60,697 nt of DNA from a bacterium (GTDB lineage: Bacteria > Patescibacteriota > Minisyncoccia > Minisyncoccales > CG1-02-41-26): positions 1 to 60,697 of the forward strand of contig JAUSHZ010000012.1 of NCBI GenBank assembly GCA_030648255.1, given 5' to 3'. A program made the position numbers and the translations under genes. Below the pieces are notes generated by a model. It worked only from the letters and a program-made list of their open reading frames with translations. It was not told where the DNA came from and ran no database searches. This document shows positions 2,660 through 53,791 of this stretch, piece by piece. The first letter of the stretch is position 1. Every line of letters starts with the position of its first letter.

Positions 2660-2660
2660 A

Positions 2661-2754: not shown

Positions 2755-2777
2755 CACATAAAATAAACACAAAATCT

Positions 2778-7255: not shown

Positions 7256-7584
7256 GCCGAATTCTGTCGAGGACAATCATTTATCTAGCCCTAATATTAC
7301 TATTAAGGTCATGCGAGCTACTTTTTACGATTAGGCAAATCCGGAGATTGTCTAATCGCTTGCTCTTGCACCCAAGTAAGGATTTAGCCGTTTCACCCTT
7401 CGCTTCTGCGAAGATTACCCCAATTGCTGGGGCCTTTTTATTTTTCAATAAAAAGCGTCACTGTTCGCACCTCGCGCCTTACGGCGGACGGGGATTACCC
7501 GCTACTATTCAATGGAGTGTTCGGACTTTCCTCCAACCTCATAATTTGTTATCATGAAGTCAGCGATTGCCTAGTTTGCTAAGG
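7239..7584 (-). ncRNA. rnpB: RNase P RNA, bacterial type
   Basis: The reverse strand carries GGAGGAAAGTCCGAACAC (CR-I) and ACAGAATTCGGCTTA (CR-V). The terminal P1 helix pairs ccttagcaaac with gtttgctaagg. Length is about 346 nt. Confidence 0.85.
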
Positions 7585-11550: not shown

Positions 11551-11622
11551 GCGGGTGTCGTATAACGGCTATTATGGTTCCTTCCCAAGGAACAGACGGC
11601 GGTCCGACTCCGCTCACCCGCT
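11551..11622 (+). tRNA. tRNA-Gly (anticodon CCC)
   Basis: It folds by hand: acceptor GCGGGTG/CACCCGC, anticodon arm GTTCC-TTCCCAA-GGAAC, T arm GGCGG-TCCGACT-CCGCT. The T-loop is unusual, reading TCC rather than TTC. Confidence 0.8.
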
Positions 11623-13627: not shown

Positions 13628-13700
13628 GCCAGCGTAGCTCAGTTGGTAGAGCAGAGCTTTCGTAAAGCTAAGGTCGCCAGTTCGATCCTGGCCGCTGGCT
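13628..13700 (+). tRNA. tRNA-Thr (anticodon CGT)
   Basis: The cloverleaf is GCCAGCG-TA-GCTC-AGTTGGTA-GAGC...loop TTCGTAA...GCCAG-TTCGATC-CTGGC-CGCTGGC-T, 73 nt in total. Confidence 0.85.
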
Positions 13701-16487: not shown

Positions 16488-16558
16488 TCGGGGGTCGTCT
16501 AGCGGTAGGACAGTGGATTCTGGCTCCACTAACTGAGGTTCAAATCCTTGCCCCCGAG
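16488..16558 (+). tRNA. tRNA-Gln (anticodon CTG)
   Basis: The acceptor is TCGGGGG/CCCCCGA (U1-A72), the anticodon arm is GTGGA-TTCTGGC-TCCAC and the T loop is TTCAAAT. Length is 71 nt. Confidence 0.8.
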
Positions 16559-16567
16559 CATAGTAAA

Positions 16568-16743
16568 GTATCGGATAAAAAAGTTGTTGAAACCCGACTT
16601 CTCAAAACTGAGCTTAAGAGTTTAAAGAAGTCGGGTTTCTGGCTCGGCTTAACGGCTGAGCTTTTTATTGTTTATTGTATCGGATGGAAAAGTTGTTGAA
16701 ACTCGGTTTCCTTGGGTTCTTGAAACCGATCTTCAACAACTTT
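16568..16743. repeat. Repeat-dense leader upstream of the giant gene: two GTATCGGAT.-AAAAGTTGTTGAAAC direct repeats, each opening a palindrome
   Basis: The direct repeats are gtatcggataaaaaagttgttgaaacccg at 16568 and gtatcggatggaaaagttgttgaaactcg at 16677. The palindromes are gaaacccgacttc/gaagtcgggtttc and 16690-16743. Confidence 0.75.
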
Positions 16744-16821
16744 TTCTTGGCTCAAAAGTTATCCACAGATTTATAGTATTGACGGGCTTTACAGCCGTAT
16801 CGGTTATGCGATAATAATACA

Positions 16822-22800: not shown

Positions 22801-25800
22801 TTGGTTTCTGGAAATTCTATTCTGTCTGGCGGTTTGTGGACAAGCGGCACCTCTACATTGGCTACCACCTCTATTACATATTTGACTGCTTCTGTTGGGG
22901 GATCGGTTATGGGAAGGTTTGGTATTGGCACTACCACCCCATACTATTCGTTGGATATTCAAAGCACATCAGGTCTTGGCTCTTTCCGTATCGCCTCCTC
23001 ATCTGTGTATAATGCGCTATTAATAGACAACAACGGATTAATGACATTTGGTTTAGGCGACCATAGCTCTTCGTCTCTTGTTATACAAGAAGGCACAAGC
23101 GGTACTGCTTATTTAACTTTTGACACCAGCAATGACGCAGAAAAAATAGTGGTGGGCAAAAATTTAGAAATTGGGCCAATGAATGTGGATCAAGATAGCG
23201 GGGCGGTGTTGTTTGCCACTATGGATGTAACCGCAAGCTCCACAGCTGGAATTGCCAATAGCTTGAGTATTGGCATTGATGGCAATTCGATTTTAACTGT
23301 GTATTCCTCATCAACTGGAAATGGGCAGATAGAACAAATGCGGGTTGGTATTGGTACCACAACCCCAATCGCTATGTTGGAATTGAGGGGTAATGCCTCA
23401 ACCACAGGAGATTTATTTAGGGTCTCAACCAGCACAATTTATGGAATGGTTATTGACGGTATGGGGCTTGTTGGTATTGGCACCTCCTCACCAACATTTA
23501 ATTTAACAGTGGCTGGCACGCAATACACAACAGGAGCTGCATATTTGAGCAGCACTTTAAATGTTTCTGGCACATCAACATTGGCAACTACTTCAATTAC
23601 TTATTTAACTGTTTCACAAGATGCAACAATTGGTGGAAAGCTAGGCATTGGAACAACCACTCCATATACCACTTTTGATTTAAAAGGAACAGCTAGTATT
23701 GATCCGTTTAGGATTGCTTCGTCAACGGGAAATACCTTATTAAAACTTTCCAATACTGGAGCATTAAGCCTTTTACCAGCAGACGGAACAACTGTTGAAG
23801 GTATTTATATGTACCCTCAAACAAATGGAAATCCTGCAAAAATTGTCATAGGAAATTCTGGAACTTCTGTTGGAACTAATCCTGCCTTTGAAATACATAG
23901 AGTGGTAACTGGGGCTACCAATGCTCACGGAATACAGGATTATTCTGATTTGAATATGGACGCAGATATGGCTTATGCTTCCCACGACTCAAGAGTTAAT
24001 CTTATAGGTTCTAATGCTATTGATCATTTTGTTTCTTTTCAAGCTGTTCCAATAATAACAAATACAGGGATAGTAAGTAGTTTATATTCTTTATGGAGCG
24101 CTCCCGTTATAAGCGCAGGAACAACCACTAATAGCTATGGAATAAAATTAGATAACCCAGCGTTAAGTGGTTCTGCGGTTGTTACAAATAATTATGGATT
24201 ATATGTTTCAAGCCAAACAGCGGGTTCGGCTAACAATTATGCTGTTTATACAGCTGGAACGGCCGCCTCTCTTTTTGGAGGAAATGTAGGGATTGGGATA
24301 ACTCCAACTTATGCTTTGCATATCTCAAAAGCCAGTCCAAGAATTTATGTAAAAGATACTGGAACGAGCTATAGTATGGCCCAATTTTCCAACGGTTCAA
24401 CTGGGGATTTTTATATTGGAAAAGAAAGTAGCACTGGAGGTTCAATAATTACGGGTTCATATGGGAACGCTGGCGTTATAAATGTAAGTGGGGCATTTCC
24501 TTTTCAACTTGCAACCAATGGAACGATTAGGATGACAGTAGCAAGTAGCACAGGAAATGTAGGCATGGGCACAACCACCCCAGCCGCCTTGCTGGATATT
24601 TATGGCACAGCCGGGCCAGCTCAATTGAGAATATCCACTTCCACTGGCTGGGCGCAGTTTTATGTTGACAACAGTGGCTACTTAAATATTGAGACACAAA
24701 ATTCCACCACCTCGGCTTTGCAAATTACTAATGCCACTGTGGTTGCCAATCAGCCGTTAAACTTAAATATGGCCGGGGATTTGGGATTGTCTTATGACAT
24801 AATGCTTGAAAATCCATCAGCCAGTTATATTAAATTTGCTGGGGCTGGTTTCGTGCAAACCGAAAGCCCGTTTGGCAATTATAATTTAACATTGTCAGCT
24901 GCCAACACGGGTAAAATTGTTTTAAACGACAATATCCAAATAACAGGCACCACCCAATTTGTGGCAAGTTCAACCGTGCAGGCATTGGCAAGCTCATCAG
25001 CCATTATTCAGGAAGTTACTTTGACCAAAATCTACGCCAGTTCTTCTTTAATCCTTTCATCTGCCCCAACAATTGCTGATGGCGTGGAGGGCGATATAAT
25101 TGTTTTACTTGGCGCTTCAACCACGCAGGCAGTAACCGTGCAAGACCAAGACACATTGGCCTCAAGCAATTTACAGCTTGGTTCAACCAACAGAATGCTC
25201 ACCAACGGATCCACTTTGGCTTTGATGTTTGACGGCACTGATTGGGTGGAGCTTTGGTATTCGGGCATTACTCACGCTGACTTTGCTGAAATGTATAAAA
25301 TAAAAGAAGATGTGGAAATAGGAGATGTGGTGGCGTTTAGCGATGAGTACTTAAAAACCCGCAAAGCCAGTTTACCAGATCAAACTTTGGTGGGAATTAT
25401 TTCTGCCAGCCCTGCCTATTTAATTGGCAATGAATTTAAAAATGAAATGGTAATGCCAGTGGCTTTAAATGGCAGGGTGCCAGTGAAGATCTCGTTGGAG
25501 GCAGGGGCAATCCAAAAAGGGGACTTGTTGATTTTATCCACCAAGCCCGGCTACGCAATGAAATATAACGAAGATTATTTGAGAGAGCTCAAGGCACTCG
25601 GTTCCTTGAAAGAGCTAACCATAGTGCCAATTGTTGGTGTGGCGTTAGAGGATTATGTTACTTCATCAGAAAAAATCCAGCCAGAATTTTTGGAAATAGA
25701 ATACAAAAAAGTTGCTATTCAGTTTAAACAAGAAACTGACGAGGCAATTAAAAATACAATTTTAGCAAAATACAAAATAAACTCTAACAGCGAAGTCAGG

Positions 25801-36927: not shown

Positions 36928-37290
36928 ATGACCAATGAACAAAAAGAACCAAAGATATTTGATTTAGAAGAAAGAACTGCCAAGTTTGGTGAAGACATTA
37001 TTAGATTTTGCAGAGAATTACCTAAAGATGAAATTACTCGCCCAATAATCAATCAGTTAGTAAAATGTGGAACCAGTGTTGGAGCAAATTATTGCGAAGC
37101 AGATGACGCAGAATCACGCAAGGATTTTAAGCATAAAATTGGTATTTGCAAAAAGGAATCCAGAGAATCAAAGCACTTTTTGCGAATGTCAGCCATCGCC
37201 ATTCCAGACAAAAAAGATAGAGCCCGCAAGCTATGGGTAGAAGCCAAAGAAATTAACTTAATCTTTAATTCTATCTATCAAAAATTATAG
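36928..37290 (+). CDS. Four-helix-bundle protein (23S rRNA IVS protein / Avd family)
   Basis: At 120 aa, it contains QLVKCGTSVGANYCEADDAESRKDFKHKIGICKKESRESKHFLRM. It is a close paralog of 32958-33314. Confidence 0.8.
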   Translation: MTNEQKEPKIFDLEERTAKFGEDIIRFCRELPKDEITRPIINQLVKCGTSVGANYCEADDAESRKDFKHKIGICKKESRESKHFLRMSAIAIPDKKDRARKLWVEAKEINLIFNSIYQKL

Positions 37291-37320: not shown

Positions 37321-37356
37321 TTATTTAGAAATTAGAAATTAGAGCAATTAGAAATT
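37321..37356. repeat. Right arm of the inverted repeat around four-helix-bundle gene 3
   Basis: The sequence is ttatttagaaattagaaattagagcaattagaaatt. Confidence 0.85.
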
Positions 37357-37373
37357 ATTATCTTTTATGGCTG

Positions 37374-37643
37374 TTGGGTTATGTGAATGGAAATATAACA
37401 ATTCATGGGTTAGGAGATTTTGAAAATTATCCTTGGTCAAGCTACGGTGCAATTTTCAAGGCACTGGGTGCCTTGAAAAACAAGGAACTGAGTGCCTTGT
37501 CGAACCTGTCGGTGTTGAGCGGGTTGGAAATTGTTTTGTCGCAGTTTGGTAGTGCGGAAGAGTTCCGCAATTTTGTTAAGCAAGTTGTTAAAGAGAGTAA
37601 GGAAAACAAAGCGATGAAAAAGTATTTGTTAGAGGATATTTAA
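37374..37643 (+). pseudogene. Probable 3' fragment of a RAYT/IS200-like Y1 transposase gene carrying family-D hairpins
   Basis: GYVNGNITIHGLGDFENYPWSSY resembles the YI..NP....L......Y.WSS motif. The tail SQFGSAEEFRNFVKQVV parallels EIFPTIDDYKKFIVSLI of the intact gene at 53009. There is no HUH region, and the track start is TTG. Confidence 0.45.
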
Positions 37644-37709
37644 AATTTCAAGGCACCCAGTGCCTTGTTTATCCACATTTGCGAAATTAGAATTTAAGAG
37701 GTAAAATAT

Positions 37710-37902: not shown

Positions 37903-40242
37903 ATGTTCCAAAAAATTATTAAGTGGTGTATTTATGCGTTGGTCTTTTTAATGCCATTGTTCTGGCTACCCTTTTCTCTTGAGGCATACGATATAAACAA
38001 GGCGTATCTGTTGGCCTTTTTGGCTGGCATTGGAATTTTGGCATGGGTTGGGAAAATGATTTTTCATAATAAAAAGATCATTTTCAAGCGCACTGCTTTG
38101 GATTTTTTTGTTTTGGGGTATTTGGCAATTTTAATTTTATCAGCCATTTTTGCTAAAGATAAGACATCAGTATTTTTGGGGTTTTATGGCAGGTTTTGGC
38201 CAAGTATTTTAACTTCAGTGTCTTTGGTTGGATTTTATTTTTTAATTACCAACAATGTTTCAAACGATGACGAGCAAAAAGATAAAGAATCAATTGGTTT
38301 AAAAAAGATTTTATCAGTATTTTTTGCTGGGTGTTTGGGGGTGGTGGCTGTTGTTTATCTGTCTTTGTTAAATGTTTGGGCGCTTTTAGCCAAGCTTTTG
38401 TCTGTTAAGCTTCCGGTTATCATGACCAACAGATTTTTTAACACAGTTGGCTCTTTGCAGGGCTTGGCAATATTTTTAGCTTTTGTGTTAACAATGTTAC
38501 TGGCCTTCTTGGCATTTGGAGATAAAGATAAAGATAAAGACAAAGAAAAGGAAAAAGACAAGAAAAAAACAAAGGTAAAGCAAGTTGCTTGGTATGTTAT
38601 GGCGTTTGCTATTTTGGGCTTATTGGCGATTATAAATTTTTGGCAGGCCTGGTTTTGTTTGGCGTTGGCTTTAGCTATATTTTTGGTTTTAAGTTTTTGG
38701 AAAAGAATGTTTAAAGAAGATGTTCAGCAATTATCTTTGCCGATCTTGTTTCTATTGCTTGCTATTGTATTTTTATTTCCCAATCCTTTAACAAAATTTT
38801 TAAACCAAAATAGCTTGATAGCGGCCTTACCAAAAGAGGCAATCTTGTCACAGCAAACAAGCTATCAAACAGCAATTAACGGCCTCAGCGAAAACCCTGC
38901 TTTGGGGTCTGGGGTTGGAGGGTTTCATTATTCGTTTGCAAAGTTTAAGCCAGCTAGTTTTTTAACCAGCCAGTTTTGGCAGGTAAGGTTTGATAGAGCG
39001 GGCAATAATATTTCAGAAATGTTAGCCACAAACGGTATTTTGGGCATTTTGGGCTTTACGGCTTTATTTTTTATGTTCTTTTTGGTTTCTTACTTTCACA
39101 TCAAAGCATCAGATAGAGAAAAAACTTCCAGTTTGCAGGATTCATCAAAAAGAATACCAATTTTAATTGGGTTTATTGCTTTGTTGGTGGGCCAATTTTT
39201 TTACTATCAAACAGCTGTGCTCGGGTTTTCTTTTTGGCTAATATTGGCTTTGGGGGTTGTTAGCTGGGGGAAGGGCACAAAGGAAAAGAAATTTTCTTTT
39301 AAGGAATTTCCAGAAGTCGGGCTTTTAATGAGTATTGTTTTTTGGGTAATGTTGTTGGCCTTGGCCTTTTTGTATTTTACTTTGTTAAGATATTATATGG
39401 CTGATGTTGCGTATCGAAACTATTTGGTTAGTGGTGGAACTGAAATAGCGGGGCTTGAGAAAGCAGCGAAATCAAATAGTTTTGGCCCAACTTATCATGT
39501 TGCCCTAGCCAGCGCTTATATGCAAAAGCTTTATAATGAGGCCGCCAAAGAAACACCAGATAAACAAATAGTCACCAACATTGCCGCCTCCGCTATTCAA
39601 GAAGCCAGAAAAGCCACAACATTGGGCCCAAATAGGGTTTCAACATACGAGGTTTCAGGAGTTATTTATAGGGATTTGCAGGCTGTGGCTCAGGGCGCGT
39701 TGGATTGGTCTGTAAAAAGTTTTGAAAGCGCCCTAAAGCTTGAACCGTTAAATCCAGTTATAACAACTGAAATTGGAAAGCTAAAACTTACTGGGGGCTT
39801 TAAGGATGCAGCAAAGATATATTTTGAAAAGGCAATGAATATGAAAAAGGATTTTGTTGAAAGTGGATTACAACTGGCAATGATGGATGAGGCCGAAGGC
39901 AAAACAAGCGATGTTCTATCTAAGCTTGAGGGATTGGTGCAATCAGCCCCGTTTTCAGTGGAAGCCAGATTTCAGTTAGCGAGAGCTTACTACAATGATA
40001 ATGAATTTGAAAAAGCTGCCCAGCAAGCCCAGCAGGCCTTGATTGTTTTTCCTAATCATTCAAATTCTTTATTCTTGCTTGGGTTGGCGTTTGAAAAAAT
40101 GGGCGAAAGGGACTTGGCATTGCAGACCTTGGAAAAAGTGTTAGAATTAAATCCAAATAACCAGCAAGTTATAGACCAGATATCAAGAATTAAAAAACCA
40201 GTTGTTATCGAAAAACCAAATGAAGAAAAAATCAGCCAGTAA
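37903..40242 (+). CDS. O-antigen ligase/polymerase-like polytopic membrane protein with a C-terminal TPR domain
   Basis: It has about 12 hydrophobic segments. The C-terminus carries TPR-like repeats (ARFQLARAYYNDNEFEKAAQQAQQAL, LFLLGLAFEKMGERDLALQTLEKVLELNPNN). A DKDKDKDKEKEKDKKK loop is present. Confidence 0.6.
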   Translation: MFQKIIKWCIYALVFLMPLFWLPFSLEAYDINKAYLLAFLAGIGILAWVGKMIFHNKKIIFKRTALDFFVLGYLAILILSAIFAKDKTSVFLGFYGRFWPSILTSVSLVGFYFLITNNVSNDDEQKDKESIGLKKILSVFFAGCLGVVAVVYLSLLNVWALLAKLLSVKLPVIMTNRFFNTVGSLQGLAIFLAFVLTMLLAFLAFGDKDKDKDKEKEKDKKKTKVKQVAWYVMAFAILGLLAIINFWQAWFCLALALAIFLVLSFWKRMFKEDVQQLSLPILFLLLAIVFLFPNPLTKFLNQNSLIAALPKEAILSQQTSYQTAINGLSENPALGSGVGGFHYSFAKFKPASFLTSQFWQVRFDRAGNNISEMLATNGILGILGFTALFFMFFLVSYFHIKASDREKTSSLQDSSKRIPILIGFIALLVGQFFYYQTAVLGFSFWLILALGVVSWGKGTKEKKFSFKEFPEVGLLMSIVFWVMLLALAFLYFTLLRYYMADVAYRNYLVSGGTEIAGLEKAAKSNSFGPTYHVALASAYMQKLYNEAAKETPDKQIVTNIAASAIQEARKATTLGPNRVSTYEVSGVIYRDLQAVAQGALDWSVKSFESALKLEPLNPVITTEIGKLKLTGGFKDAAKIYFEKAMNMKKDFVESGLQLAMMDEAEGKTSDVLSKLEGLVQSAPFSVEARFQLARAYYNDNEFEKAAQQAQQALIVFPNHSNSLFLLGLAFEKMGERDLALQTLEKVLELNPNNQQVIDQISRIKKPVVIEKPNEEKISQ

Positions 40243-41542
40243 AATTAAACCTAAAAAAGTTCAAGTTCAAGGATTTCAAGGAACTCGGTTCCTTGAGAAA
40301 AAATTCAAGGAACCGAGTTCCTTGAAATCCTCCTCTTCGGCGGTAGTAGAGGACAATTTTAAAATACGGAAAATAAAAGTTAAAATTGTTGGGATTGGGG
40401 GCGGAGGAGCTTCGATTGTTTCAGAGGTTTCTTCTCTGTTGAAGGCCTACAGCTTTGTGGCTTGCGATACAGATATTAGAACTGCCAAAAAAATAAAAAA
40501 GGGCGTGAAGTTTTTTCAGCTTGGCAGTAATGTTTTAAATGGAATGGGCACGGGAATGAATACGGATTTGGCTGGTAAAATTGCTAACGACGAAAAAGAT
40601 AAAATTGAGCAAATTTTTGCCGGGCAGGATATTTGTGTTTTAGTTGGCTGTTTGGGGGGCGGGGTAGCCAGTGGGGCTGGGCCTATTTTTGCCGCTGCCG
40701 CCAAAAACCAAAAGTGCCTGTCTATTGGCATTTTCACTTTGCCATTTATTTTTGAGGGCGAGAAAAAAATGAAAGTGGCCAGAAAAGCTATTACTGAATT
40801 AAAAGAGTACTTATCAGGGATTATTGTTGTTTCTAATGAAAAAATCTTTCAATTAACCGATAAAAAAATTTCTTTAAAAAAGGCGTTGTCTTTTTTAAAC
40901 CAGTTTTTTGCCTTATGGCTCGCTGAGTTATTAGATGTTGTTTTTAAGCCAAGCTTAGTGAATATTGACTTCGCTGACTTAAAAGCCATATTAAAGGATA
41001 GAGGGCACACTTTATTTTTTAGCCAAGCGCAAGCCGCAGGAGTTAATAGGGTGGATGATATTATAAAAAATATTTTTCAAAATAATTTATTATCAGAGCC
41101 TCCTAAAAATGTTAAGAGAGCTCTTTTTAATATTTCTGGCGGGAAGGATTTAAAATTAAAAGAGGTTGAGCTGATAAGCGAAGAGATTAGCCGGCTCAAT
41201 CCCAAAGCCAAAATTATTTTTGGCATATCCCAAGTAAGCCAGCAAAAAGAAAAAATAAAAGTGGTGTTATTGGCTGTTTGCGAAGACGATAAAAAATTAA
41301 AAATTTTAGAAGAAAAACCAAAAGAGGAGCCAGTTAAATTAAAAAAGAAGAGTCCGACCCCACCCCTCCGCCTCCCAAAGCGGAGGAGTGGGGTCGGGGG
41401 ATCTGTTGTGCCTGTGGTGGTAGAAAAAACCCGAAGAACTGCCATTGAAGCTCAAAAAGCCGAAGACGAAGCAGAAAAAATTGAATGGCTCACAGAAACC
41501 GACTGGGATGTCCCTGCGTTTATGCGCAATAACAAGAAATGA
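40220..41542 (+). CDS. ftsZ: Cell division protein FtsZ (divergent)
   Basis: Residues IVGIGGGGASIV...NGMGTGMN...GGGVASGAGP fit the tubulin/FtsZ signature, and the C-terminal tail reads DVPAFMR. The start is set at ATG 40220. Confidence 0.8.
   Translation: MKKKSASKIKPKKVQVQGFQGTRFLEKKFKEPSSLKSSSSAVVEDNFKIRKIKVKIVGIGGGGASIVSEVSSLLKAYSFVACDTDIRTAKKIKKGVKFFQLGSNVLNGMGTGMNTDLAGKIANDEKDKIEQIFAGQDICVLVGCLGGGVASGAGPIFAAAAKNQKCLSIGIFTLPFIFEGEKKMKVARKAITELKEYLSGIIVVSNEKIFQLTDKKISLKKALSFLNQFFALWLAELLDVVFKPSLVNIDFADLKAILKDRGHTLFFSQAQAAGVNRVDDIIKNIFQNNLLSEPPKNVKRALFNISGGKDLKLKEVELISEEISRLNPKAKIIFGISQVSQQKEKIKVVLLAVCEDDKKLKILEEKPKEEPVKLKKKSPTPPLRLPKRRSGVGGSVVPVVVEKTRRTAIEAQKAEDEAEKIEWLTETDWDVPAFMRNNKK
40271..40330. 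repeat. Family-D double hairpin in frame in the ftsZ N-terminal extension
   Basis: The sequence ggatttcaaggaactcggttccttgagaaaaaattcaaggaaccgagttccttgaaatcc is read as GFQGTRFLEKKFKEPSSLKS. Confidence 0.85.
41354..41397. repeat. Family-C GC-rich palindrome in frame in the ftsZ C-terminal linker
   Basis: The sequence ccgaccccacccctccgcctcccaaagcggaggagtggggtcgg is read as PTPPLRLPKRRSGVG. Confidence 0.85.
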
Positions 41543-41544
41543 AA

Positions 41545-41634
41545 GGCTGTTGAAGCTCGGTTTTTAGAGAGCCCAAAACCGAGCTTCAACAGCCTCGCCC
41601 TCAAAGTTTGTTGTTGAACCCGAGCTTCAACAAC
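41545..41634. repeat. Family-A long palindrome plus a short hairpin downstream of ftsZ
   Basis: The long copy is ggctgttgaagctcggtttttagagagcccaaaaccgagcttcaacagcc at 41545-41594. The short copy is gttgttgaacccgagcttcaacaac at 41610-41634. Confidence 0.85.
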
Positions 41635-43517: not shown

Positions 43518-43577
43518 TTGTTGAAGTTTGACTTCAACAAGCTTGTTGAAGTCAAACTTCAAAAGCTCAATAACTTT

Positions 43578-44555
43578 ATGCTTGATTTAATTATAATTGG
43601 CGGGGGGCCAGCTGGAGTCACTGCTGGCATTTACGCTTCTCGGAAAAAATTAAATACCTTGATTATTGCCAAAGATTTTTTTGGTCAAATTTCAAAAACA
43701 GGCCAAGTGGATAATTGGCCAGGGGATATGGCCATCAGCGGAGTGAACCTGGCTTTAAAATTAGAAAAGCATTTAAAAAGTTTTTTAGTTGAGATAAAAG
43801 AAGGTCAAAAAGTAGTGGCTGTTTCTTACGCTCCCGTCATTCTGAGCCAGCAGGCGAAGAATCTCGGCTGCGACCCTTCGCTAATCACTCAGGGTGACAA
43901 ATTCACGGTGCAGATTGAAAGTGGGGAAATTTTTGAGGCCAAGGCATTAATAATTGCCACTGGCCGAAACGCTAAAACTTTGTGCGTTGAAGGCGAACAG
44001 GATTTTGTGGGCAAGGGGCTTTCTTATTGTTCAATTTGCGATGCGCCGTTTTTTAAAGATAAGCAAGTGGCGGTTTTTGGAGGTGGAAACGCTGGCTTTG
44101 AAACAGCTTTGGATTTAATAAAATACGCTAAAAAAGTTTTTATTTTTGAAAAGAGCGACAAAATTTTAGCTGACGAGGCCTTAGTTGAAAAAGCAAAAAT
44201 AACTGGAAAAATAGAAATTTGTTTGCAAGTAGAAATTTTAAAGGTAGAAGGCACAAACAGAGTCCAGTCAATAGTTTATAAAAATTTGGCTTCGGGTAAA
44301 ACAATGCAGCAGCCAATGGACGGGGTATTTGTGCAAATCGGCTCGGTGCCAGCCACTGGATTTTTAGGGAAGTTAGTTGATTTTGATGAAGACAATGAAA
44401 TAAAAGTTGATTCAAAAACCTTGGAAACGTCGGTTAAGGGGATATTTGCCGCTGGCGATTGCAATGATACAAAGTGGAAACAAGCCATAATTGCCGCAGG
44501 ACAAGGAGCAACTGCCGCGCTATCGGCTTACGAGTTTTTACAGAAGGGCTGTTGA
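43578..44555 (+). CDS. trxB: Thioredoxin-disulfide reductase
   Basis: FAD and NAD GxGxxG motifs are present (IIIGGGPAG, VFGGGNAG). The redox centre is CSICD, and GDC lies near the C-terminus. The start is set at ATG 43578. The track's 20-codon extension is a nested palindrome at 43517-43565. Confidence 0.85.
   Translation: MLDLIIIGGGPAGVTAGIYASRKKLNTLIIAKDFFGQISKTGQVDNWPGDMAISGVNLALKLEKHLKSFLVEIKEGQKVVAVSYAPVILSQQAKNLGCDPSLITQGDKFTVQIESGEIFEAKALIIATGRNAKTLCVEGEQDFVGKGLSYCSICDAPFFKDKQVAVFGGGNAGFETALDLIKYAKKVFIFEKSDKILADEALVEKAKITGKIEICLQVEILKVEGTNRVQSIVYKNLASGKTMQQPMDGVFVQIGSVPATGFLGKLVDFDEDNEIKVDSKTLETSVKGIFAAGDCNDTKWKQAIIAAGQGATAALSAYEFLQKGC
43835..43901. repeat. Family-B palindrome in frame inside trxB
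   Basis: The sequence cgtcattctgagccagcaggcgaagaatctcggctgcgacccttcgctaatcactcagggtgacaaa is read as VILSQQAKNLGCDPSLITQGDK. Confidence 0.85.
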
Positions 44556-44596
44556 AGCTCGGTTTTGGGAGCCCTAAAAACCGAGCTTCAACAGCC
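44547..44596. repeat. Family-A long palindrome containing the trxB stop codon
   Basis: The sequence is ggctgttgaagctcggttttgggagccctaaaaaccgagcttcaacagcc. trxB ends GGC TGT TGA inside it. Confidence 0.85.
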
Positions 44597-44608: not shown

Positions 44609-45898
44609 ATGAAAATTCTATCTCTTAAAGCTCGAGAAATTTTAGATAGCCGTGGCGTGCCAACGGTGGAAGCGATTTTAGAAACTGATGGCGGGTTGTT
44701 TAAGGCGTCTGTTCCGTCGGGCACTTCAACGGGCAAATATGAGGCGTTTGAACTGCGAGACAACGACGAGCGGTTTTTTGGCAAAGGCGTTTTAAAAGCA
44801 GTGAAAAATATTGAGAAAAAAATAGCGGAAGCTATTTTAAATAAAGATTTTTCCAGCCAAAAAGATCTGGACGATTTTTTAATAAAATTAGATGCTACAG
44901 AAAATAAGTCGCATTTAGGGGCAAACGCGATTTTAGCTGTTTCAATGGCGGGTTGTCGGGCTTTTGCCTGCGAAAAAAACCAGGAGCTTTTTGAGTTTAT
45001 AGCTGTTGAAGCTCGGTTTTTAGGGGGCCCAAAACCGAGCTTCAACAGCCCCAACAGTCCCGAAATTTGGCTTCCAACTCCGTGCTTTAATATAATAGAA
45101 GGAGGAAAGCACGCAGGCAATAACCTTGAAGTGCAAGAATTTATGGCTGTGCCATTTTTGGAAAGTTTTGCTGAAAACCTGCGATCCGGGGCTGAAGTTT
45201 ATTACCATTTAAAGTTGCTTTTAATAAAAAATTTTGGCGAAACTGCCATGAACACAGGCTATGAGTCAGGATTTGCTCCAGCTTTCAAAAAAACCGAAAC
45301 AGCTTTTGAATTTTTGTTAAAAGCTATCCAAAAAGCGGGCTATGAAGGAAAATTCAAAATTGGTTTGGACATAGCATCAAGCGAGCTTTTATACAAGGAA
45401 AAATATAGAATTAATGCTAAGTTTTTTTCTCCAAAAAAACTTGCTGATTATTATTTGAAACTTTACCACAATTACCCAATAGCTTTTATTGAAGATGGTT
45501 TTGGTCAGGATGATTTAACGGGCTGGCGGGGATTAGAATCAGGAATCAAGAATCAGGAATTAGGAATTATTGTAGTGGGGGATGATTTAACAGCTACTAA
45601 TCCAGAAAGAATAAAAATGGCGCAAGAGAAAAATTTATGCAATGCTGTTATTATAAAACTTAACCAAATTGGGTCAGTAACAGAAGCAATCAATGCGGCT
45701 AACTTGGCAAAAAGTTTTAACTGGAAAGTTATTGTATCGCACAGAAGCGGTGAAACAAACGACGACTTTATTGCTGATTTTGCAGTTGGCATTGGAGCTG
45801 ATTTTATTAAAACAGGCGCACCAGCTGGTGGAGAAAGAGTGGCAAAATATAACCGTTTACTAGAAATTGAAAAAGAGCTGTTGAAGCTCGGTTTTTAG
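44609..45898 (+). CDS. eno: Enolase
   Basis: The N-terminus reads KAREILDSRGVPTVEA. Residues NIIEGGKHAGN, IEDGF..DD, VGDDLTATN and SHRSGET are also present. Confidence 0.9.
   Translation: MKILSLKAREILDSRGVPTVEAILETDGGLFKASVPSGTSTGKYEAFELRDNDERFFGKGVLKAVKNIEKKIAEAILNKDFSSQKDLDDFLIKLDATENKSHLGANAILAVSMAGCRAFACEKNQELFEFIAVEARFLGGPKPSFNSPNSPEIWLPTPCFNIIEGGKHAGNNLEVQEFMAVPFLESFAENLRSGAEVYYHLKLLLIKNFGETAMNTGYESGFAPAFKKTETAFEFLLKAIQKAGYEGKFKIGLDIASSELLYKEKYRINAKFFSPKKLADYYLKLYHNYPIAFIEDGFGQDDLTGWRGLESGIKNQELGIIVVGDDLTATNPERIKMAQEKNLCNAVIIKLNQIGSVTEAINAANLAKSFNWKVIVSHRSGETNDDFIADFAVGIGADFIKTGAPAGGERVAKYNRLLEIEKELLKLGF
45001..45050. repeat. Family-A long palindrome in frame inside enolase
   Basis: The sequence agctgttgaagctcggtttttagggggcccaaaaccgagcttcaacagcc is read as AVEARFLGGPKPSFNS. 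It is identical to the copy at 49031-49079. Confidence 0.9.
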
Positions 45899-45922
45899 AG
45901 AGCCCAAAACCGAGCTTCAACA
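45876..45922. repeat. Family-A long palindrome containing the enolase stop codon
   Basis: The sequence is gagctgttgaagctcggtttttagagagcccaaaaccgagcttcaaca. eno ends ...E LLKLGF TAG inside it. Confidence 0.85.
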
Positions 45923-48813: not shown

Positions 48814-49053
48814 ATGTCAAAAATAAAAGTATATTCAACAGAGTTTTGCCCATACTGTGTTGCTTTAAAAGAATTTTTAAAGGAAAATAAAATTGATTTT
48901 GAGGCAGTTGATGTAACCGAAGATTTAAAAGCTCAAGATGAAATGATTGAAAAATCTGGCCAACTGGGCGTGCCGGTCATAGATATCAACGGTGAGATTA
49001 TAGTAGGATTTGACAGGGAGAGAATAAAACAGCTGTTGAAGCTCGGTTTTTAG
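48814..49053 (+). CDS. Glutaredoxin/NrdH-like small redox protein
   Basis: At 79 aa, it contains YSTEFCPYCVALKEFL...GVPVIDING. The last six codons and the stop lie in a family-A palindrome. Confidence 0.8.
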   Translation: MSKIKVYSTEFCPYCVALKEFLKENKIDFEAVDVTEDLKAQDEMIEKSGQLGVPVIDINGEIIVGFDRERIKQLLKLGF

Positions 49054-49079
49054 GGGGCCCAAAACCGAGCTTCAACAGC
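49030..49079. repeat. Family-A long palindrome containing the glutaredoxin stop codon
   Basis: The sequence is cagctgttgaagctcggtttttagggggcccaaaaccgagcttcaacagc. The gene ends Q LLKLGF TAG. Confidence 0.9.
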
Positions 49080-49108: not shown

Positions 49109-50074
49109 ATGACAAGAATTGCTATAAATGGTTTTGGCAGAATTGGAATGCTCACAGCTCAAAGGATGCAGGAAAAGCATCCTAATTTAGAATTAGTGGC
49201 TATAAACGAGGTCAACCCCGTTGAAAAGCAAGCTTTCAACAGGGCAAGATTTTTTTCTGAAAAAGATCCATCAAATTTGCCCTGGAAAGATTTGGAGGTT
49301 GATACTGTTTTGGAGTGTTCTGGTTTTTTTACAGAATTGAACGCCGCTAAAAAACATTTGTTGGCGGGCGCTAAAAAAGTAATAATTTCAGCGCCATCGG
49401 ATTCACCAGAAATTCCTGTTTTTTTATTGGGAGTTAATGCCCAGAATTATAAAGGCGAAGCAATAATTTCCATGGGTTCTTGCACAACCAATGCTGTGGC
49501 CCCTTTGGCAAAAATTTTAGACGCAAATTTTGGCGTTAAAAATGGTTTTGTCAATACAGTGCATAGCTACACTAATTCACAAAATAAATTATATCCAAAC
49601 TGGCGACAAGAACCAGCTAGCAAGCTAAGCATTATTCCTTCCACAACCGGAGCCACCAAAACTATTGAAAAATGTTTGCCAAAATTAAAAGGCAAGCTAA
49701 ACGGCCTTTCTTTAAGAGTGCCCACAGAAACAGTTTCCATTGTGGAATTTGTTTTTTTAGCAAAGAAAAAAGCCACAGTTGAACAAGTAAACGCAGTATT
49801 GCAGAGAGCCGCCGAAGAATTTCAAGGCACTCGGTTCCTTGAAAGGGGATTCAAGGAACCGAGTGCCTTGAAATCCCCAAGCAATATTTTAAAATTTGAA
49901 AATAAAAAATTAATTTCTACGGATTTAAAAAATAGCGAGTATTCCTCAATAATTGATGGCTCGTTGACCCAAACATTTGGCAAGCTAATAAAGGTTTTCG
50001 CTTGGTATGATAATGAGTGGGGGTATATCTGCAGATTAGCCGAAATGGCGGAGTACATCGGGGGCAAGAATTAG
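49109..50074 (+). CDS. gap: Glyceraldehyde-3-phosphate dehydrogenase
   Basis: It contains RIAINGFGRIG, the catalytic SCTTNA and WYDNEWGY. Confidence 0.9.
   Translation: MTRIAINGFGRIGMLTAQRMQEKHPNLELVAINEVNPVEKQAFNRARFFSEKDPSNLPWKDLEVDTVLECSGFFTELNAAKKHLLAGAKKVIISAPSDSPEIPVFLLGVNAQNYKGEAIISMGSCTTNAVAPLAKILDANFGVKNGFVNTVHSYTNSQNKLYPNWRQEPASKLSIIPSTTGATKTIEKCLPKLKGKLNGLSLRVPTETVSIVEFVFLAKKKATVEQVNAVLQRAAEEFQGTRFLERGFKEPSALKSPSNILKFENKKLISTDLKNSEYSSIIDGSLTQTFGKLIKVFAWYDNEWGYICRLAEMAEYIGGKN
49819..49873. repeat. Family-D double hairpin in frame inside gap
   Basis: The sequence atttcaaggcactcggttccttgaaaggggattcaaggaaccgagtgccttgaaat is read as FQGTRFLERGFKEPSALKS. Confidence 0.85.
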
Positions 50075-50158: not shown

Positions 50159-50797
50159 ATGTTATTAAACTTTGAAAAAACAAAAGAGTTATTAGAAAAA
50201 TACCAAATACCAATGGTGGAAAGTTTGGTTATTAAAAATTTAGGGCAGGGGATTGATTTTGCCAACAAGGTTGGTTTTCCCGTTGTCTTAAAATTAATTT
50301 CAAGCGATGTTTTGCATAAAATTGATAAGGGTTTAGTGAAGTTGAATATTCAAAATGCACAAGATTTGGAAATTACTTGGAAGGAACTCGGTTACTTCGG
50401 GGGTCAAAGTAACCGAGTTCCTTCGGACGGCGAGATTGTTATTCAGAAACAAATTTCCGGGCTAGAGCTCTTTGTAGGCATGAAGCGAGATAAAAGTTTT
50501 GGGCCAGTTATCAGTTTTGGCTTGGGCGGGGTATTCGTGGAAGTTTTAGAAGATATTGTTTTTGGCATTTGCCCTGTTGATAAAACACAAGCCTTGGAGA
50601 TGATAAAAAAGATTAGGGGTTATAAAATTTTACAAGGATATAGGGGGCAGTCAAAAATAGATATTGAAAAATTAGCAAATATCTTGGCAAGTATTTCAAA
50701 ATTAGCTGTTGAAAATGAGAATATCCAAGAAATTGATTTTAACCCTATAATAGCAAACGAAAACAATATTTTAGTAGTAGATGGAAAAATTATTTAA
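50159..50797 (+). CDS. acdB: Acetate--CoA ligase (ADP-forming), beta/ATP-grasp subunit
   Basis: The ATP-grasp pattern GFPVVLKLISSDVLHKIDKGLVKLNI...GPVISFGLGGVFVE is present. It overlaps the alpha subunit gene. Confidence 0.7.
   Translation: MLLNFEKTKELLEKYQIPMVESLVIKNLGQGIDFANKVGFPVVLKLISSDVLHKIDKGLVKLNIQNAQDLEITWKELGYFGGQSNRVPSDGEIVIQKQISGLELFVGMKRDKSFGPVISFGLGGVFVEVLEDIVFGICPVDKTQALEMIKKIRGYKILQGYRGQSKIDIEKLANILASISKLAVENENIQEIDFNPIIANENNILVVDGKII
50379..50424. repeat. Family-D-like palindrome in frame in acdB
   Basis: The sequence ggaaggaactcggttacttcgggggtcaaagtaaccgagttccttc is read as KELGYFGGQSNRVPS. Confidence 0.75.
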
Positions 50798-52163
50798 TCC
50801 AAAATCCGTTGTCTTGATTGGCGCTACTGACAGGCCTGGTTCTGTTGGTTTGGGCATTGCTAAAAATTTGCTTTCTGGAAAAAATAAAAGAAAGATTTTT
50901 TTTATTAACCCCAATAGCAAAAAAGTTTTAAACCAAAAAACCTTTGCTTCCATTCTAGATATAAAAGAAAAAATTGATTTAGCCATTATTGCTGTTCCAG
51001 TAAAATTTGTTAAGCAGGTTTGTATTGAAGTATGCCAAACCAATGTTGGCTCTTGTATTATAATTTCATCTGGCTTTGCTGAAGCAGGAAGGGAAGGGGC
51101 GATATTACAAAAAGAAATTAAAGAACTTTTTTTAGAAAATAGTATTTCTTTGGTTGGGCCAAATTGTTTGGGAGTTATAAATCCAAGCGTGGCTCTCAAC
51201 GCTTCTTTTGCTCCTGAAATGCCAAAACAGGGTAGCATTGCCTTCTTAAGCCAGTCGGGCGCTTTAATAGATTCTATAATTGACAAATCACTTTTGGAAA
51301 ATTTCGGATTTTCTTTAATGGTGTCTTATGGCAACGAAGCAGGACTTTCTTTAAACGATTTTTTAAAAATAGCCAATGACAATAAAGATACCAAAGTTAT
51401 TGCTGTTTATTTAGAGGAAATAAAAAAGGGCCCGGAGTTTATTAAAATTGCCAACGAAATTACAAAAAATAAACCGATTGTTATTTTAAAGGGAGGTAAA
51501 ACCCAGGAAGGAAGATTGGCCGTGCAAAGCCACACAGCTTCTTTAGCTGGCAATGAAAAAATTTACGCAGCAGCATTTCAAAAGGCTGGCGTAATTGAAG
51601 TTGAAACAATAAGAGATTTATTTTTAATTAGCCAGGCTTTATCAATTTACAGCACTCGGAGCGCTGTAGCGGGCTGGCCCGCCAGCAACGTTTCGCGTAG
51701 CGATGCGGGCTGGCCCGCCCAAAGCCCTGCGGGCAATGAGGCGGGCTGGGCTATTTTAACCAATGGGGGAGCGGTTGGTGTAATAACTGCTGATTGGTGC
51801 TCTAGATTTGGGGTAAAATTAGTAAAAATATCGCAAAATAATCCTTGGGATATTTTAGGAGACGCCTCTAGCGAAAAATATCAAACGGCATTAATTTCCC
51901 TATTAAGACAAAAAGAAATTTCTGGTGTTATTTTTTGCCAAACCTTGCAAACAATGACCGACCCATTACAAAATGCTAAAGTAATTATTGAGGCTCAAAA
52001 ACAATTTCTTGACAAGCCAATTCTGCCATTATTTTTGGGTGGAAAAATAACAAAAAAGGGGAGTGATTTTTTAAGTAAAAATGGTCTTTTGAATTTTAAC
52101 GAGCCAAGAGACATTGCTCTATGTGCCAAATTTTTAGAAAACAAAACGGCTTCACATTATTAG
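50781..52163 (+). CDS. acdA: Acetate--CoA ligase (ADP-forming), alpha subunit (CoA-binding plus succinyl-CoA-synthetase-like)
   Basis: It contains LFNPKSVVLIGATDRPGSVG and the phospho-His loop QSHTASLAG. Confidence 0.75.
   Translation: MEKLFNPKSVVLIGATDRPGSVGLGIAKNLLSGKNKRKIFFINPNSKKVLNQKTFASILDIKEKIDLAIIAVPVKFVKQVCIEVCQTNVGSCIIISSGFAEAGREGAILQKEIKELFLENSISLVGPNCLGVINPSVALNASFAPEMPKQGSIAFLSQSGALIDSIIDKSLLENFGFSLMVSYGNEAGLSLNDFLKIANDNKDTKVIAVYLEEIKKGPEFIKIANEITKNKPIVILKGGKTQEGRLAVQSHTASLAGNEKIYAAAFQKAGVIEVETIRDLFLISQALSIYSTRSAVAGWPASNVSRSDAGWPAQSPAGNEAGWAILTNGGAVGVITADWCSRFGVKLVKISQNNPWDILGDASSEKYQTALISLLRQKEISGVIFCQTLQTMTDPLQNAKVIIEAQKQFLDKPILPLFLGGKITKKGSDFLSKNGLLNFNEPRDIALCAKFLENKTASHY
51669..51752. 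repeat. Three tandem GC-rich hairpins (gcgggctggcccgcc) in frame in acdA
   Basis: Copies lie at 51669-51683, 51705-51719 and a partial one at 51741-51752. They are read as AGWPA...AGWPA...AGWA. Confidence 0.8.
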
Positions 52164-52957
52164 AGCTTTTAATTGTCATCGGCATTATCGGCATTTTAGC
52201 TGGTGTTGTCTTGGTTAGCTTTCCTTCCGCTGATAAGAAAGCTAAACTAGCTAATGCTTTAAGCTTTTCCGATAATGTTAGGGGCTCTTTGCAGCCAGAT
52301 ATGATTGCTTGGTGGAAACTTGATGAAACAGCCGGAACTATTGCCAGCGATTCCTGGTGGAACCAACTTAATGGCACTGTTTTTGGCGCCACCTGGGTTG
52401 AGGGCATTATTAATAATGCTTTAAGTTTTGACGGGGCGAATGATTATGTAGATTTTGGGAATAATGCGAGTTTAGACTTAACTCATACTGGAACTATAGA
52501 ATTTTGGTTTAAAAATGACAGTTGGCAGAGTAGCTACGTTTCCCTTATTCAAAAAGGCGCGGGTGGTGGCTGGTGTAGCAATAATTATCAGCCCTTTACT
52601 ATTTTTAACCACTACACTGGAAATTACATTGCCTTTAGCATGTGCAGCGCTTCATCATATAATTCTGTTTCAATAGCCCCGCGGCCAACCACTGGCGCGT
52701 GGCATCATTATGTTTTTACTTTTAATGGCACAAAATTAAAATCATATCTTGATGGGAAAATTCAGCAAACTGCAAATCAAACATTAGATATGAGGGTTCA
52801 AAATGTTGCCCTGTGGGTTGGGAGAAGTTCTCCTGGCTATATATTGGGTTTGGTAGATGAAGTTCGCATTTATTCAGAGGCGCTACCCACTTCTGCTATT
52901 CAGCAGCATTATGCTCAAGGCCTTGAAACTCATTCAAGCTTCTTAGTTGAAAAATAA
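52121..52957 (+). CDS. Type IV pilin-like protein with a LamG domain
   Basis: The class III signal NG/FTLLELLIVIGIIGILAGVVLV is followed by a W.LDE....D......GT...FDG.NDYV...VDEVRIYSEAL LamG module. It overlaps the acdA 3' end by 43 nt. Confidence 0.8.
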   Translation: MCQIFRKQNGFTLLELLIVIGIIGILAGVVLVSFPSADKKAKLANALSFSDNVRGSLQPDMIAWWKLDETAGTIASDSWWNQLNGTVFGATWVEGIINNALSFDGANDYVDFGNNASLDLTHTGTIEFWFKNDSWQSSYVSLIQKGAGGGWCSNNYQPFTIFNHYTGNYIAFSMCSASSYNSVSIAPRPTTGAWHHYVFTFNGTKLKSYLDGKIQQTANQTLDMRVQNVALWVGRSSPGYILGLVDEVRIYSEALPTSAIQQHYAQGLETHSSFLVEK

Positions 52958-52972: not shown

Positions 52973-53791
52973 GTTGTTGAACCCGAGCTTCAACAGCAAA
53001 ATAAAAATATGAGATTTGAAACAATTCAAGTAGGCGAGTATGCCCATATTTATAACAGAGGCAACCGTAAACAAGATATTATTAAAAATGAAAAAGACAG
53101 CTGGCGTTTTATTCAGGCCTTAATGTTTTTTAATGACAGCCATTCTTCAGTAAATATCTTGCGTCAGATTGTTTCCTCAAAAGCTAAAAAAACTGTTGAA
53201 CCCGAGCTTCAACAGATGCCAGAGTCGGTGTTTAGAATGGGTTGGCCAAAAGATTGGCCAGAAAAAGATCCGTTAGTTAAAATTTTATGTTATTGTTTAT
53301 CACCTAATCATTTTCATTTGCTCTTACAAGAAATTCGCGAGGGCGGTATTAGTAAGTTTATGCAAAAATTTGGTGGTGGTTATACGAAATATTTTAATAT
53401 AAAACATAAAGAAGTGGGACGAGTTTTTCAAGGGCCTTATAAAATAAAAATAGTCGGAAGCGATCAAGTTTATCTTGAGTATTTAAGCGCTTATATTCAA
53501 GTAAAAAATGTTTTAGAATTATTTCCAGGCGGTATTCAGGAGGCGAAAAAAAATATTAGCGAGGCAATAAAGTTTTTAGAAAAGTATGTTTTTTCAAGTT
53601 GTCCAGATTTTTTAGGCGTTCGTAATTCCCTAATTATTGATAAAGGTATTTTGGGAGAGATTTTTCCAACTATAGATGACTACAAGAAGTTTATTGTGAG
53701 TTTAATTGAAAGTGGCAGTTTTGACCACGAAGTTATAGCTGATTCTTTATTTGATGAGTAGTAAAAACTGTTGAAGCTCGGGTTCAACAAC
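52973..53791 (+). mobile_element. REPtron-like unit: a RAYT-like gene bracketed by exact inverted 24-mers
   Basis: GTTGTTGAACCCGAGCTTCAACAG at 52973-52996 has its exact reverse complement at 53768-53791. A third copy sits in frame at 53193-53215. Confidence 0.65.
53009..53761 (+). CDS. Y1 (HUH) tyrosine transposase, IS200/IS605 TnpA / REP-associated (RAYT)-like
   Basis: The HUH motif reads SPNHFHLLLQE. It also has RVFQGPYKIKIV and the Tyr motif YLSAYIQVKNV. Confidence 0.7.
   Translation: MRFETIQVGEYAHIYNRGNRKQDIIKNEKDSWRFIQALMFFNDSHSSVNILRQIVSSKAKKTVEPELQQMPESVFRMGWPKDWPEKDPLVKILCYCLSPNHFHLLLQEIREGGISKFMQKFGGGYTKYFNIKHKEVGRVFQGPYKIKIVGSDQVYLEYLSAYIQVKNVLELFPGGIQEAKKNISEAIKFLEKYVFSSCPDFLGVRNSLIIDKGILGEIFPTIDDYKKFIVSLIESGSFDHEVIADSLFDE

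Follow-up and report, generated by a model that had tools for sequence, protein, structure and literature searches.

Can a nuclease gene account for the palindromes that surround it, some of which lie inside the coding sequences of conserved proteins? The question is raised by one locus on contig JAUSHZ010000012.1, a 60.7-kb stretch of patescibacterial DNA that was analysed over its whole length and is called the window below. An open reading frame (ORF) of 250 codons stands there between two inverted copies of a 24-nt hairpin, carries a third copy within its own frame, and shares the core of that hairpin with longer palindromes scattered over the window. A reading made from the letters of the stretch (the sequence-only reading) had named the ORF a repetitive extragenic palindrome (REP)-associated tyrosine transposase (RAYT) and proposed that gene and hairpins form a REPtron driving the palindromic elements. 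The analysis presented here leads to a related answer: the locus probably holds a RAYT-class HUH nuclease with a cognate hairpin of 23–24 nt, present in three copies at the gene and amplified elsewhere as palindromes.

The nuclease gene and its three hairpins

The ORF is one uninterrupted frame, and its flanks are as they had been read: the 24-mer GTTGTTGAACCCGAGCTTCAACAG occurs exactly on the plus strand upstream of the start codon, and its exact reverse complement follows the stop codon (Table 1). The internal copy differs from the 24-mer only in its two outermost bases and is translated in frame as TVEPELQQ (residues 62–69). All three copies fold into a hairpin with an 8-bp stem and a 7-nt loop, at a DNA folding free energy (ΔG) of −4.6 to −6.0 kcal/mol. 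With up to three mismatches allowed, the 24-mer has six matches in the window against none in 100 shuffles. Chance or low complexity as the source of the 24-mers and of their core is ruled out by the absence of any match in those shuffles.

Intrinsic termination was considered as the main role of the hairpins and rejected, because none of the three is followed by a T run on the plus strand and a terminator inside a reading frame is implausible. No Rfam family was found at the locus, and the 100-nt flanks contain no GGGG-type terminal repeat of the kind described for RAYT subclass 2.1.

The protein is predicted to be a Y1 HUH nuclease from its fold and from the alignment of its HUH and tyrosine motifs. 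Pfam Y1_Tnp (PF01797) matches residues 90–164 with 33.8 bits against a cut-off of 23, and the same profile matches 58 of 58 diverse members of the protein's family. The segments NHFHLLL and YIQVKNV, named as the two motifs in the sequence-only reading, contribute H101/H103 and Y162; both are conserved, with H103 and Y162 invariant and H101 at least 90% conserved in a 91-sequence alignment. Comparison of the 58-member profile with RayT of Escherichia coli K-12 (hhalign; probability 81%, E = 1.3e-5) pairs PNHFH with PEHMH and Y162 with Y115, and the motif assignment thus survives a proper alignment. The HUH motif is also aligned with DHVH of the ISDra2 transposase TnpA, in a broad-profile search of the PDB whose match is weak (E = 0.12); PDB searches by single sequence and by narrow profile returned nothing relevant.

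An AlphaFold2 (AF2) model built from 26 close homologs alone had a predicted local distance difference test score (pLDDT) of 50 and was replaced by a model from the 91-sequence alignment, with a pLDDT of 89.4. Its best Foldseek match is 4ER8, a structure of the E. coli RAYT in complex with a REP hairpin (E = 1.2e-4), followed by 2XMA, 2A6M and 2F4F, the transposases of ISDra2, ISHp608 and IS200; all four matches have a probability of 1.00 and modest template modelling (TM) scores of 0.5–0.6 on target length. Tyr162 lies on a modelled helix (residues 153–169). The peptide encoded by the internal hairpin falls in the least confident stretch of the model, a linker between a helix (residues 47–59) and the strand (residues 90–97) that precedes the HUH motif. 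Within the TnpA(REP)/RAYT class, the motif signature appears closest to subclass 2.1 (RAYT group 1), and YIHLNP is the family consensus after the catalytic tyrosine.

Conservation of the hairpins among Patescibacteria

The gene belongs to a large family. Its close homologs number at least 871, all from Patescibacteria and about 240–250 residues long. The family profile gathers at least 7250 protein clusters, with 1473 representatives at 50% identity reaching E ≤ 1e-30, and a relative is encoded in at least 492 stretches of species-representative genomes. To our knowledge, work on RAYT/REP systems has dealt almost exclusively with Proteobacteria and Cyanobacteria. A literature search for RAYTs in Patescibacteria or the candidate phyla radiation found nothing relevant, and neither of two papers that classify RAYTs mentions these phyla. 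The family is a large and previously unstudied RAYT-like clade, spread over hundreds of species genomes.

The layout of hairpin, gene and hairpin is family-wide in Patescibacteria. A segment shared between the 100-nt upstream and downstream flanks (score ≥15) was found at 52 of 89 family genes, compared with 10 of 720 control ORFs taken from the same fetched loci. Every such segment is a hairpin, with a sequence that changes from genome to genome. In the relatives it ends 9–23 nt before the ATG on one side and starts 1–23 nt after the stop codon on the other; in many loci the copies differ only in the central loop base. No consistent rule governs the orientation of the three hairpins across loci: the upstream and internal copies may agree and the downstream copy be inverted, the upstream copy may be inverted relative to the other two, or all three may be direct. 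At nine of 84 loci a further, divergent member of the family lies within 10 kb, and the hairpins differ between the paralogs.

The internal copy, underrated in the sequence-only reading, is a conserved, covarying trait of a large clade and not a one-off. The flank hairpin recurs in the linker, 5–50 codons upstream of the HUH motif, in 29 of 82 genes, and in 0 of 84 within an equal-sized control region after the motif. On a neighbour-joining tree, the internal copy is present in 6/6 members of the window's clade and 9/10 of a second clade, is scattered in a third, and is missing from two others (0/23). Seven internal hairpins, from the window's clade and a syntenic relative, align without gaps and have 95.7% of their stem cells paired, whereas slid controls pair at 24–49%; six of the ten stem pairs have changed on both sides, which 0 of 500 shuffles reach. 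It is the nucleic-acid structure that is conserved, not the peptide. In the window the first base of the hairpin falls on codon position 2, and in six relatives on position 1. Within a locus, the internal copy matches a flank copy at a mean of 21.7 of 23 positions, whereas internal copies from different genomes agree at 14.8 of 23, which shows concerted evolution of the three copies. The E. coli rayT gene has flanking REPs but no internal copy, its highest gene-to-flank score of 9 being equal to background.

We consider the internal copy most likely to be a selected recognition site, for which it is a candidate. It might serve in autoregulation, or be a master copy that the reading frame protects, and conversion or re-pasting may keep it identical to the flank copies. 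With this fixed, structure-conserved hairpin in frame, selection acts at once on the DNA or RNA structure and on the protein code of a single stretch of sequence. A possible but doubtful alternative is that the copy is a selfish REP tolerated in a permissive loop, functionless and repeatedly re-acquired. In-frame REPs in tnpA(REP) genes of subclass 2.4 are a published precedent (PMC6006769), and the same elements stand in frame in enolase, GAPDH and other genes of the window; the site in the nuclease gene, however, is constant over clades that are 30–40% identical and is never in the post-HUH control region. The window's codon phase differs from that of its relatives, which suggests replacement, yet the changes in the stem are compensatory and preserve it. 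Although two large clades lack the copy, two others have it in nearly every member, and it stays near-identical to the flanks even in genomes that show no further copy in the vicinity.

In a minority of relatives (7 of 84 genes at score ≥15), the flank hairpin has a further match near the C-terminal part (residues ~150–217), with matches among loci L036, L068, L028, L040, L047, L059, L060 and L080. Such matches may reflect either another site inside the gene or a hairpin insertion that has shortened the end of the gene.

Dispersed palindromes and their mobility

Which of the two has moved, the gene or the palindromes? A comparison with contig JAQULB010000009.1 (L208) of a Paceibacteria genome bears on both. 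This contig is collinear with the window over 40.2–53.8 kb (FtsZ, enolase, GAPDH, CoA-ligase genes, LamG pilin, RAYT-like gene), and its RAYT-like protein and enolase are 67% and 76% identical to those of the window. The RAYT-like gene holds the same place, after the LamG pilin gene. The relative's hairpin, TGGTTGGTATCNGATACCAACCA, is found upstream of the gene, inside it (WLISDTNQ) and downstream of it, and nowhere else in 25.5 kb.

The nuclease gene is low-copy and vertically inherited, not a jumping insertion sequence (IS). The window contains one intact gene of the family and one remnant, and the 90% identity cluster of the window protein has a single member on a single contig. It is in our judgement very improbable that the hairpin–gene–hairpin unit is an autonomous IS of the IS200/IS605 type, with the hairpins as its ends and the palindromes as miniature inverted-repeat transposable element (MITE) derivatives. 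The superfamily is the same, and a coding sequence bordered by palindromes is the layout of such elements (PMC8266576), but the flank hairpins are inverted and do not share one orientation on one strand, the protein has 250 residues and the FQ and SS-tail signature of class 2 where IS200 has Y---Q, and no tnpB is adjacent. Synteny does break exactly past the 3′ hairpin; the gene nevertheless occupies an orthologous position in a relative whose protein has diverged as far as stated above. The second family genes within 10 kb, which could recall a multiplying element, are highly divergent paralogs with different hairpins, and across the family the 90% identity clusters are almost all single-member and single-contig.

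Several features of the neighbourhood were recorded in passing. The LamG (Laminin_G_3) pilin-like gene, at 52121–52957 in the window, lies within 500 nt of the RAYT-like gene here and in L208, and a tblastn search of 83 loci placed a LamG or giant multi-LamG gene <500 nt from the RAYT-like gene in 7/7 LamG-positive loci (loci listed with a LamG neighbour: L001, L024, L037, L066, L071, L081, L083 and L208). The proximity may reflect a neighbourhood that is simply conserved, or a link in function. A PPDK gene stands between the CoA-ligase and LamG genes in the relative and is missing in the window. Where collinearity ends (from 53791/53799 on), a 910-aa ClpB-like gene comes next in the window, and genes for PfkB, ferredoxin and L25 in the relative.

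The palindromes, in turn, are numerous. The 14-nt core of the hairpin, CTGTTGAAGCTCGG, occurs 17 times in the window with at most one mismatch, against 0.01 expected, and is spread over 50 kb. Beyond the three gene copies there are 11 elements in the 60.7 kb: three short hairpins (at 2662, 2729 and 41610) and eight long palindromes, six of them canonical and two degenerate or composite (Table 1). The sequence-only reading had found this core in at least 10 palindromes of roughly 49 nt; the core is indeed there, and the palindromes number eight unless their arms are counted. The long palindromes have perfect arms of 19–21 nt, loops of 10–11 nt and a DNA ΔG of −23 to −25 kcal/mol. Two of them confirm that elements also sit inside coding sequences, one in frame in enolase and the other in frame in a 3226-aa ORF (16822–26502). 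Partial CAACAG/TTGTTGAA repeats adjoin several long palindromes, in too few copies to be called target-site duplications. The matches listed in a metagenome scan with CTGTTGAAGCTCGGKTT were chance ones, in unrelated high-GC contigs that encode peptides like ELLKLGF, with no real family member among them.

Presence and absence at orthologous positions, on which the claim of mobility turned, differ between the two genomes. None of the eight long palindromes occurs in the 25.5 kb of the syntenic relative. The palindrome at 44547 is absent from the orthologous spacer, and the element in the enolase interdomain loop adds 12–16 residues that are absent from the closest enolases, which are 76–80% identical. 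An insert of a second palindrome family (family B, below) in GAPDH and a palindrome in the Pyr_redox gene are likewise window-specific. These comparisons support the conclusion that the derived long palindromes were mobile: they are lineage-specific and include in-frame inserts in loops. Other relatives' enolases have different inserts in the same interdomain loop, which suggests recurrent in-frame colonisation by other palindromic elements. Such inserts, and the stop codons that palindromes supply, affect gene calling and protein alignments in candidate phyla radiation genomes.

Two further sets of inserts were noted. Enolases of the clade (P0126–P0133) have lineage-specific inserts in the interdomain loop and in two other loops, among them HPVKSAEGGAEQFNGV and NPPAGGQSAK in P0130/P0133. 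A GC-rich repeat coding AGWPASNVSRSDAGWPAQSPAGNEAGWA in a CoA-binding protein gene (51660–51780) is common to the window and the relative, and is therefore an older, fixed in-frame insert.

A second RAYT-like gene survives in the window as its C-terminal part only. Family-B hairpins lie inside this remnant (37455–37499) and just past its stop codon (37646–37668), in the form CAAGGCAC...GTGCCTTG, and the long forms of family B are true inverted doublets of a hairpin with a 9-bp stem and a TCG loop. The degraded second paralog thus pairs with the window's second palindrome family, which supports hairpin specificity.

Table 1. Positions in the window of the RAYT-like genes, their hairpins and the related palindromes
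Feature	Position	Strand	Context and details
Composite: short variant (2662–2685) and long variant (2702–2754)	2659–2755		intergenic
Degenerate long palindrome, same family	16688–16744		intergenic
Long palindrome, canonical	19088–19140		in frame in 3226-aa ORF (AVEARFWEPLKTELQQ)
Second RAYT-like gene remnant, C-terminal part only	37329–37668 (remnant 37329–37643)	+	hidden Markov model (HMM) E = 2.7e-5
Family-B palindrome, two inverted hairpins TCAAGGAAC-TCG-GTTCCTTGA	40270–40331		inside ORF 40202–41542
Long palindrome, canonical	41544–41595		directly past stop of ORF 40202–41542
Dispersed short hairpin, 1 mismatch	41610–41633	+	intergenic, adjoins long palindrome 41544–41595
Long palindrome, canonical	44547–44596		gives last codons and stop of ORF 43518–44555; upstream of enolase
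Long palindrome, canonical, 48 nt = 16 codons, AVEARFLGGPKPSFNS	45002–45049		in frame, enolase interdomain loop
Long palindrome, canonical	45879–45922		gives enolase C-terminal ELLKLGF and stop codon
Long palindrome, canonical	49032–49079		intergenic, upstream of GAPDH
Family-B sibling	49819–49874		in GAPDH, in frame, window-specific relative to syntenic relative
Family-B sibling	50380–50424		inside ATP-grasp gene
5′ flank hairpin, 24-mer	52973–52996	+	stem TGTTGAA.../...TTCAACA, loop CCCGAGC; ends 12 nt before ATG
RAYT-like gene, predicted Y1 HUH nuclease	53009–53761	+	core residues ~10–169 and C-terminal helical extension; Pfam, hhalign, AF2, Foldseek
Internal in-frame hairpin copy	53192–53215	+	variable linker, between helix (residues 47–59) and strand (residues 90–97)
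HUH motif H101-F102-H103	53309–53317	+	conserved in family alignments; aligned with E. coli RayT and ISDra2 TnpA
Putative catalytic Tyr162	53492–53494	+	invariant in 91-sequence alignment; aligned with E. coli RayT Y115
3′ flank hairpin	53768–53791	−	reverse complement of 5′ copy; starts 7 nt past stop codon

How would the protein have spread the palindromes? The driving role is inferred from E. coli TnpA(REP) and from TnpA of IS608 and ISDra2. The cognate substrate would be the 23–24-nt hairpin that stands upstream of the gene, inverted downstream of it, and in what is probably an unconstrained surface linker ahead of the HUH strand. At replication forks, the protein may bind the hairpin as it folds in single-stranded DNA, cleave beside it through Tyr162 with a metal held by His101 and His103, and then rejoin the strands. 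In this lineage, that activity would have amplified the 15-nt module (loop and 3′ stem) as perfect palindromes of 48–53 nt, whose copies would survive only where they are harmless: in spacers, at gene ends and in protein loops.

A number of observations weigh against an amplifying RAYT. The NCBIfam equivalog NF047646 (REP_Tyr_transpos) scores 14.3 bits against a cut-off of 80. In the window protein and its clade, the tyrosine motif is YIQV(K/I)NV, with the Asn shifted by one and no Pro, which differs from the Y---NP signature of class 2. A GTAG foot is absent in the window, where the feet are AAGT, AAAC and TTGT, then TGTTGAA; a CTAC...GTAG outer stem is present in some distant relatives. The long palindromes share with the 24-mer only the 15-nt module (loop plus one stem arm, 3′) and are not simple REP doublets of it. 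In about 25 relatives, the hairpin is confined to the gene, with copies upstream, inside and downstream of it and none elsewhere within 10–20 kb. It may be, therefore, that dispersal is exceptional and that the hairpins serve the gene instead of being its product.

Taken to its conclusion, this last point would make the hairpins no more than local cis-regulatory elements, belonging to an HUH protein that has been domesticated for a host function, an enzyme that mobilises nothing. Structures in the 5′ untranslated region, inside the gene and 3′ of it would serve autoregulation, mRNA stability or the blocking of antisense transcription, and the palindromes would share the module by descent only, or would have been spread by fold-back replication errors or by another enzyme. 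We regard this as unlikely, for the evidence divides as follows. First, the hairpins tightly bracket the ORF, but the module recurs in 11 further elements spread over 50 kb. Second, the covariation can be read as selection on structure, yet the dispersed elements are insertion-polymorphic relative to the syntenic relative. Third, subclass 2.1 proteins are reported without REPs (PMC6006769), whereas here even the remnant of a second paralog is matched with a second dispersed family, and hairpin-specific DNA cleavage and joining have been demonstrated for the nearest characterised relatives (PMC8266576). A regulatory role would also agree with the A run that precedes each of the three hairpins on the plus strand, and with a terminator scan in which only the internal hairpin, on the minus strand, scored as terminator-like.

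A self-contained three-hairpin module, in which the covarying internal hairpin at its conserved position is a functional part, the Patescibacteria-wide HUH nuclease acts mainly on its own gene, and REP-like spread, with the in-frame colonisation of housekeeping genes, is an occasional by-product, strikes us as somewhat unlikely. Its activity would then amount to autoregulation, self-templated homogenisation or a host role linked to the replication fork. If this were true, the largest RAYT-like subclass would lose its 'no REP' status, and selfish DNA inside proteins, of the Rickettsia palindromic element (RPE) type, would have its first candidate enzyme.

For the preferred reading, in which the nuclease amplified its hairpin as palindromes, the observations support a REPtron-like system but not a canonical REPtron: the GTAG foot is missing, the equivalog fails, and the copy number in a 60.7-kb contig is modest. 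The REPtron proposed in the sequence-only reading is supported by its architecture and by the insertion polymorphism, and none of the three refuting conditions set there, in so far as they could be applied, spoke against it.

Other features of the window are listed here for completeness. The remnant sits just downstream of a 23S-rRNA-IVP-like four-helix-bundle gene (36928–37290), and loci L081 and L083/L084 likewise have genes of the 23S-rRNA-IVP-like family close to their RAYT-like genes. A third palindrome family, GTCATYCTGAG...CTCAGSRTGAC, has copies at 9824–9886 and 43835–43895 (ΔG with RNA parameters about −29 to −33 kcal/mol), both in frame, the first in ORF 9224–11143 and the second in the Pyr_redox gene, where it forms an insert of about 20 residues (YAPVILSQQAKNLGCDPSLIT) that is absent in the syntenic relative. 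A fourth, GC-rich family, CGACCCCACCCCTCYGC...GCRGAGGAGTGGGGTCG, has copies at 6761–6800 and 41354–41397 (ΔG with RNA parameters about −36 to −40 kcal/mol), within ORFs 6731–7255 and 40202–41542. A class A RNase P RNA (7237–7582, minus strand, 144.6 bits) and three tRNA genes (11551–11622, 13628–13700 and 16488–16558) are ordinary and unrelated to the finding.

Relation to known systems

The locus holds a REPtron-like system of a known enzyme class, in a lineage and subclass for which none had been described, with a conserved layout of three hairpins and a plausible link to in-frame palindromic inserts. A REPtron consists of a single-copy tnpA(REP) gene with cognate REPs nearby, a GTAG foot and REPs genome-wide (PMC8266576). 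The E. coli TnpA(REP)/RayT (4ER8; RAYT group 2, equal to subclass 2.2) has the Y1 HUH fold that is predicted here, with HUH and Tyr aligned, and the E. coli system of REPs and bacterial interspersed mosaic elements (BIMEs) likewise has a low-copy syntenic gene bracketed by cognate hairpins, a hairpin that co-varies with the protein, and related palindromes dispersed in the genome. The differences are as follows: the protein here has 250 residues against 165, with an additional helix and linker ahead of the HUH strand and a helical extension at the C terminus, all as modelled; it has an internal hairpin copy, no GTAG foot and no match to the equivalog; and the dispersed copies are few, with none seen nearby in most relatives.

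REPs lying in frame within tnpA(REP) genes are known from subclass 2.4 (RAYT group 4; Cyanobacteria and Bacteroidetes), where they generally stand between HuH and Y (Quentin et al. 2018, PMC6006769); the position here differs. The authors of that study also describe REP insertions in unrelated genes, and they give the subclass motifs as WQ and YIxNNP, with long 'double foot' REPs of the form GT[AG]G...C[TC]AC (PMC6006769). Both systems have a cognate REP inside their own nuclease gene, with the frame intact and in a peripheral variable region, and flanking REPs as well. The Patescibacteria genes have instead a single hairpin at a fixed site 30–40 residues upstream of HUH, and the motifs FQ and YIHLNP.

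By motif, the nearest relatives appear to be the proteins of subclass 2.1 (RAYT group 1; 'TIRYT'), characterised by an NH[YF]H / FQ / Y[IV]HLNP variant, an SS tail and a median length of 238 residues (PMC6006769). The family consensus matches one listed motif variant, an assignment by motifs only. Subclass 2.1 is described as having no REP-like structures near the gene, a terminal inverted repeat (TIR) of GGGG[AT][CG]A[CG], and HTH/DnaA_C tails (PMC6006769). In contrast, the Patescibacteria genes have hairpins at the gene, and the flanks lack a GGGG-type TIR; the clade thus has gene-specific cognate hairpins despite the motif signature of a subclass described as REP-less.

Elements of the IS200/IS605 group (IS608, ISDra2) share the predicted catalytic domain and the palindrome-bordered coding sequence, and their subterminal hairpins are recognised as single-stranded DNA. 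They are multi-copy, near-identical and mobile, with a TnpA of about 150 residues, Y---Q and often tnpB, none of which applies here. Rolling-circle Rep proteins, such as those of phiX174 gene A and pT181 repC, have the nick site inside their own gene, and they too are HUH enzymes with a recognition hairpin or nick site in their own coding sequence. They belong to the Rep HUH class and not to Y1, serve extrachromosomal replicons, and act at a single origin where three copies are found here.

The closest parallel to the inserts themselves is the RPE, palindromic DNA that Ogata et al. reportedly found in frame in proteins of Rickettsia in 2000. In both cases, short palindromes stand in frame in loops of conserved proteins (here enolase and GAPDH), and their presence varies among relatives. 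We know of no cognate enzyme for RPEs. In the window, by contrast, the inserted family has its core in common with the hairpins at a resident gene for a predicted Y1 nuclease, which links the palindromes in enolase, GAPDH and other conserved proteins to a candidate enzyme. With a protein of 250 residues and oligonucleotides of 24 nt, the origin of 'selfish DNA inside proteins' becomes testable.

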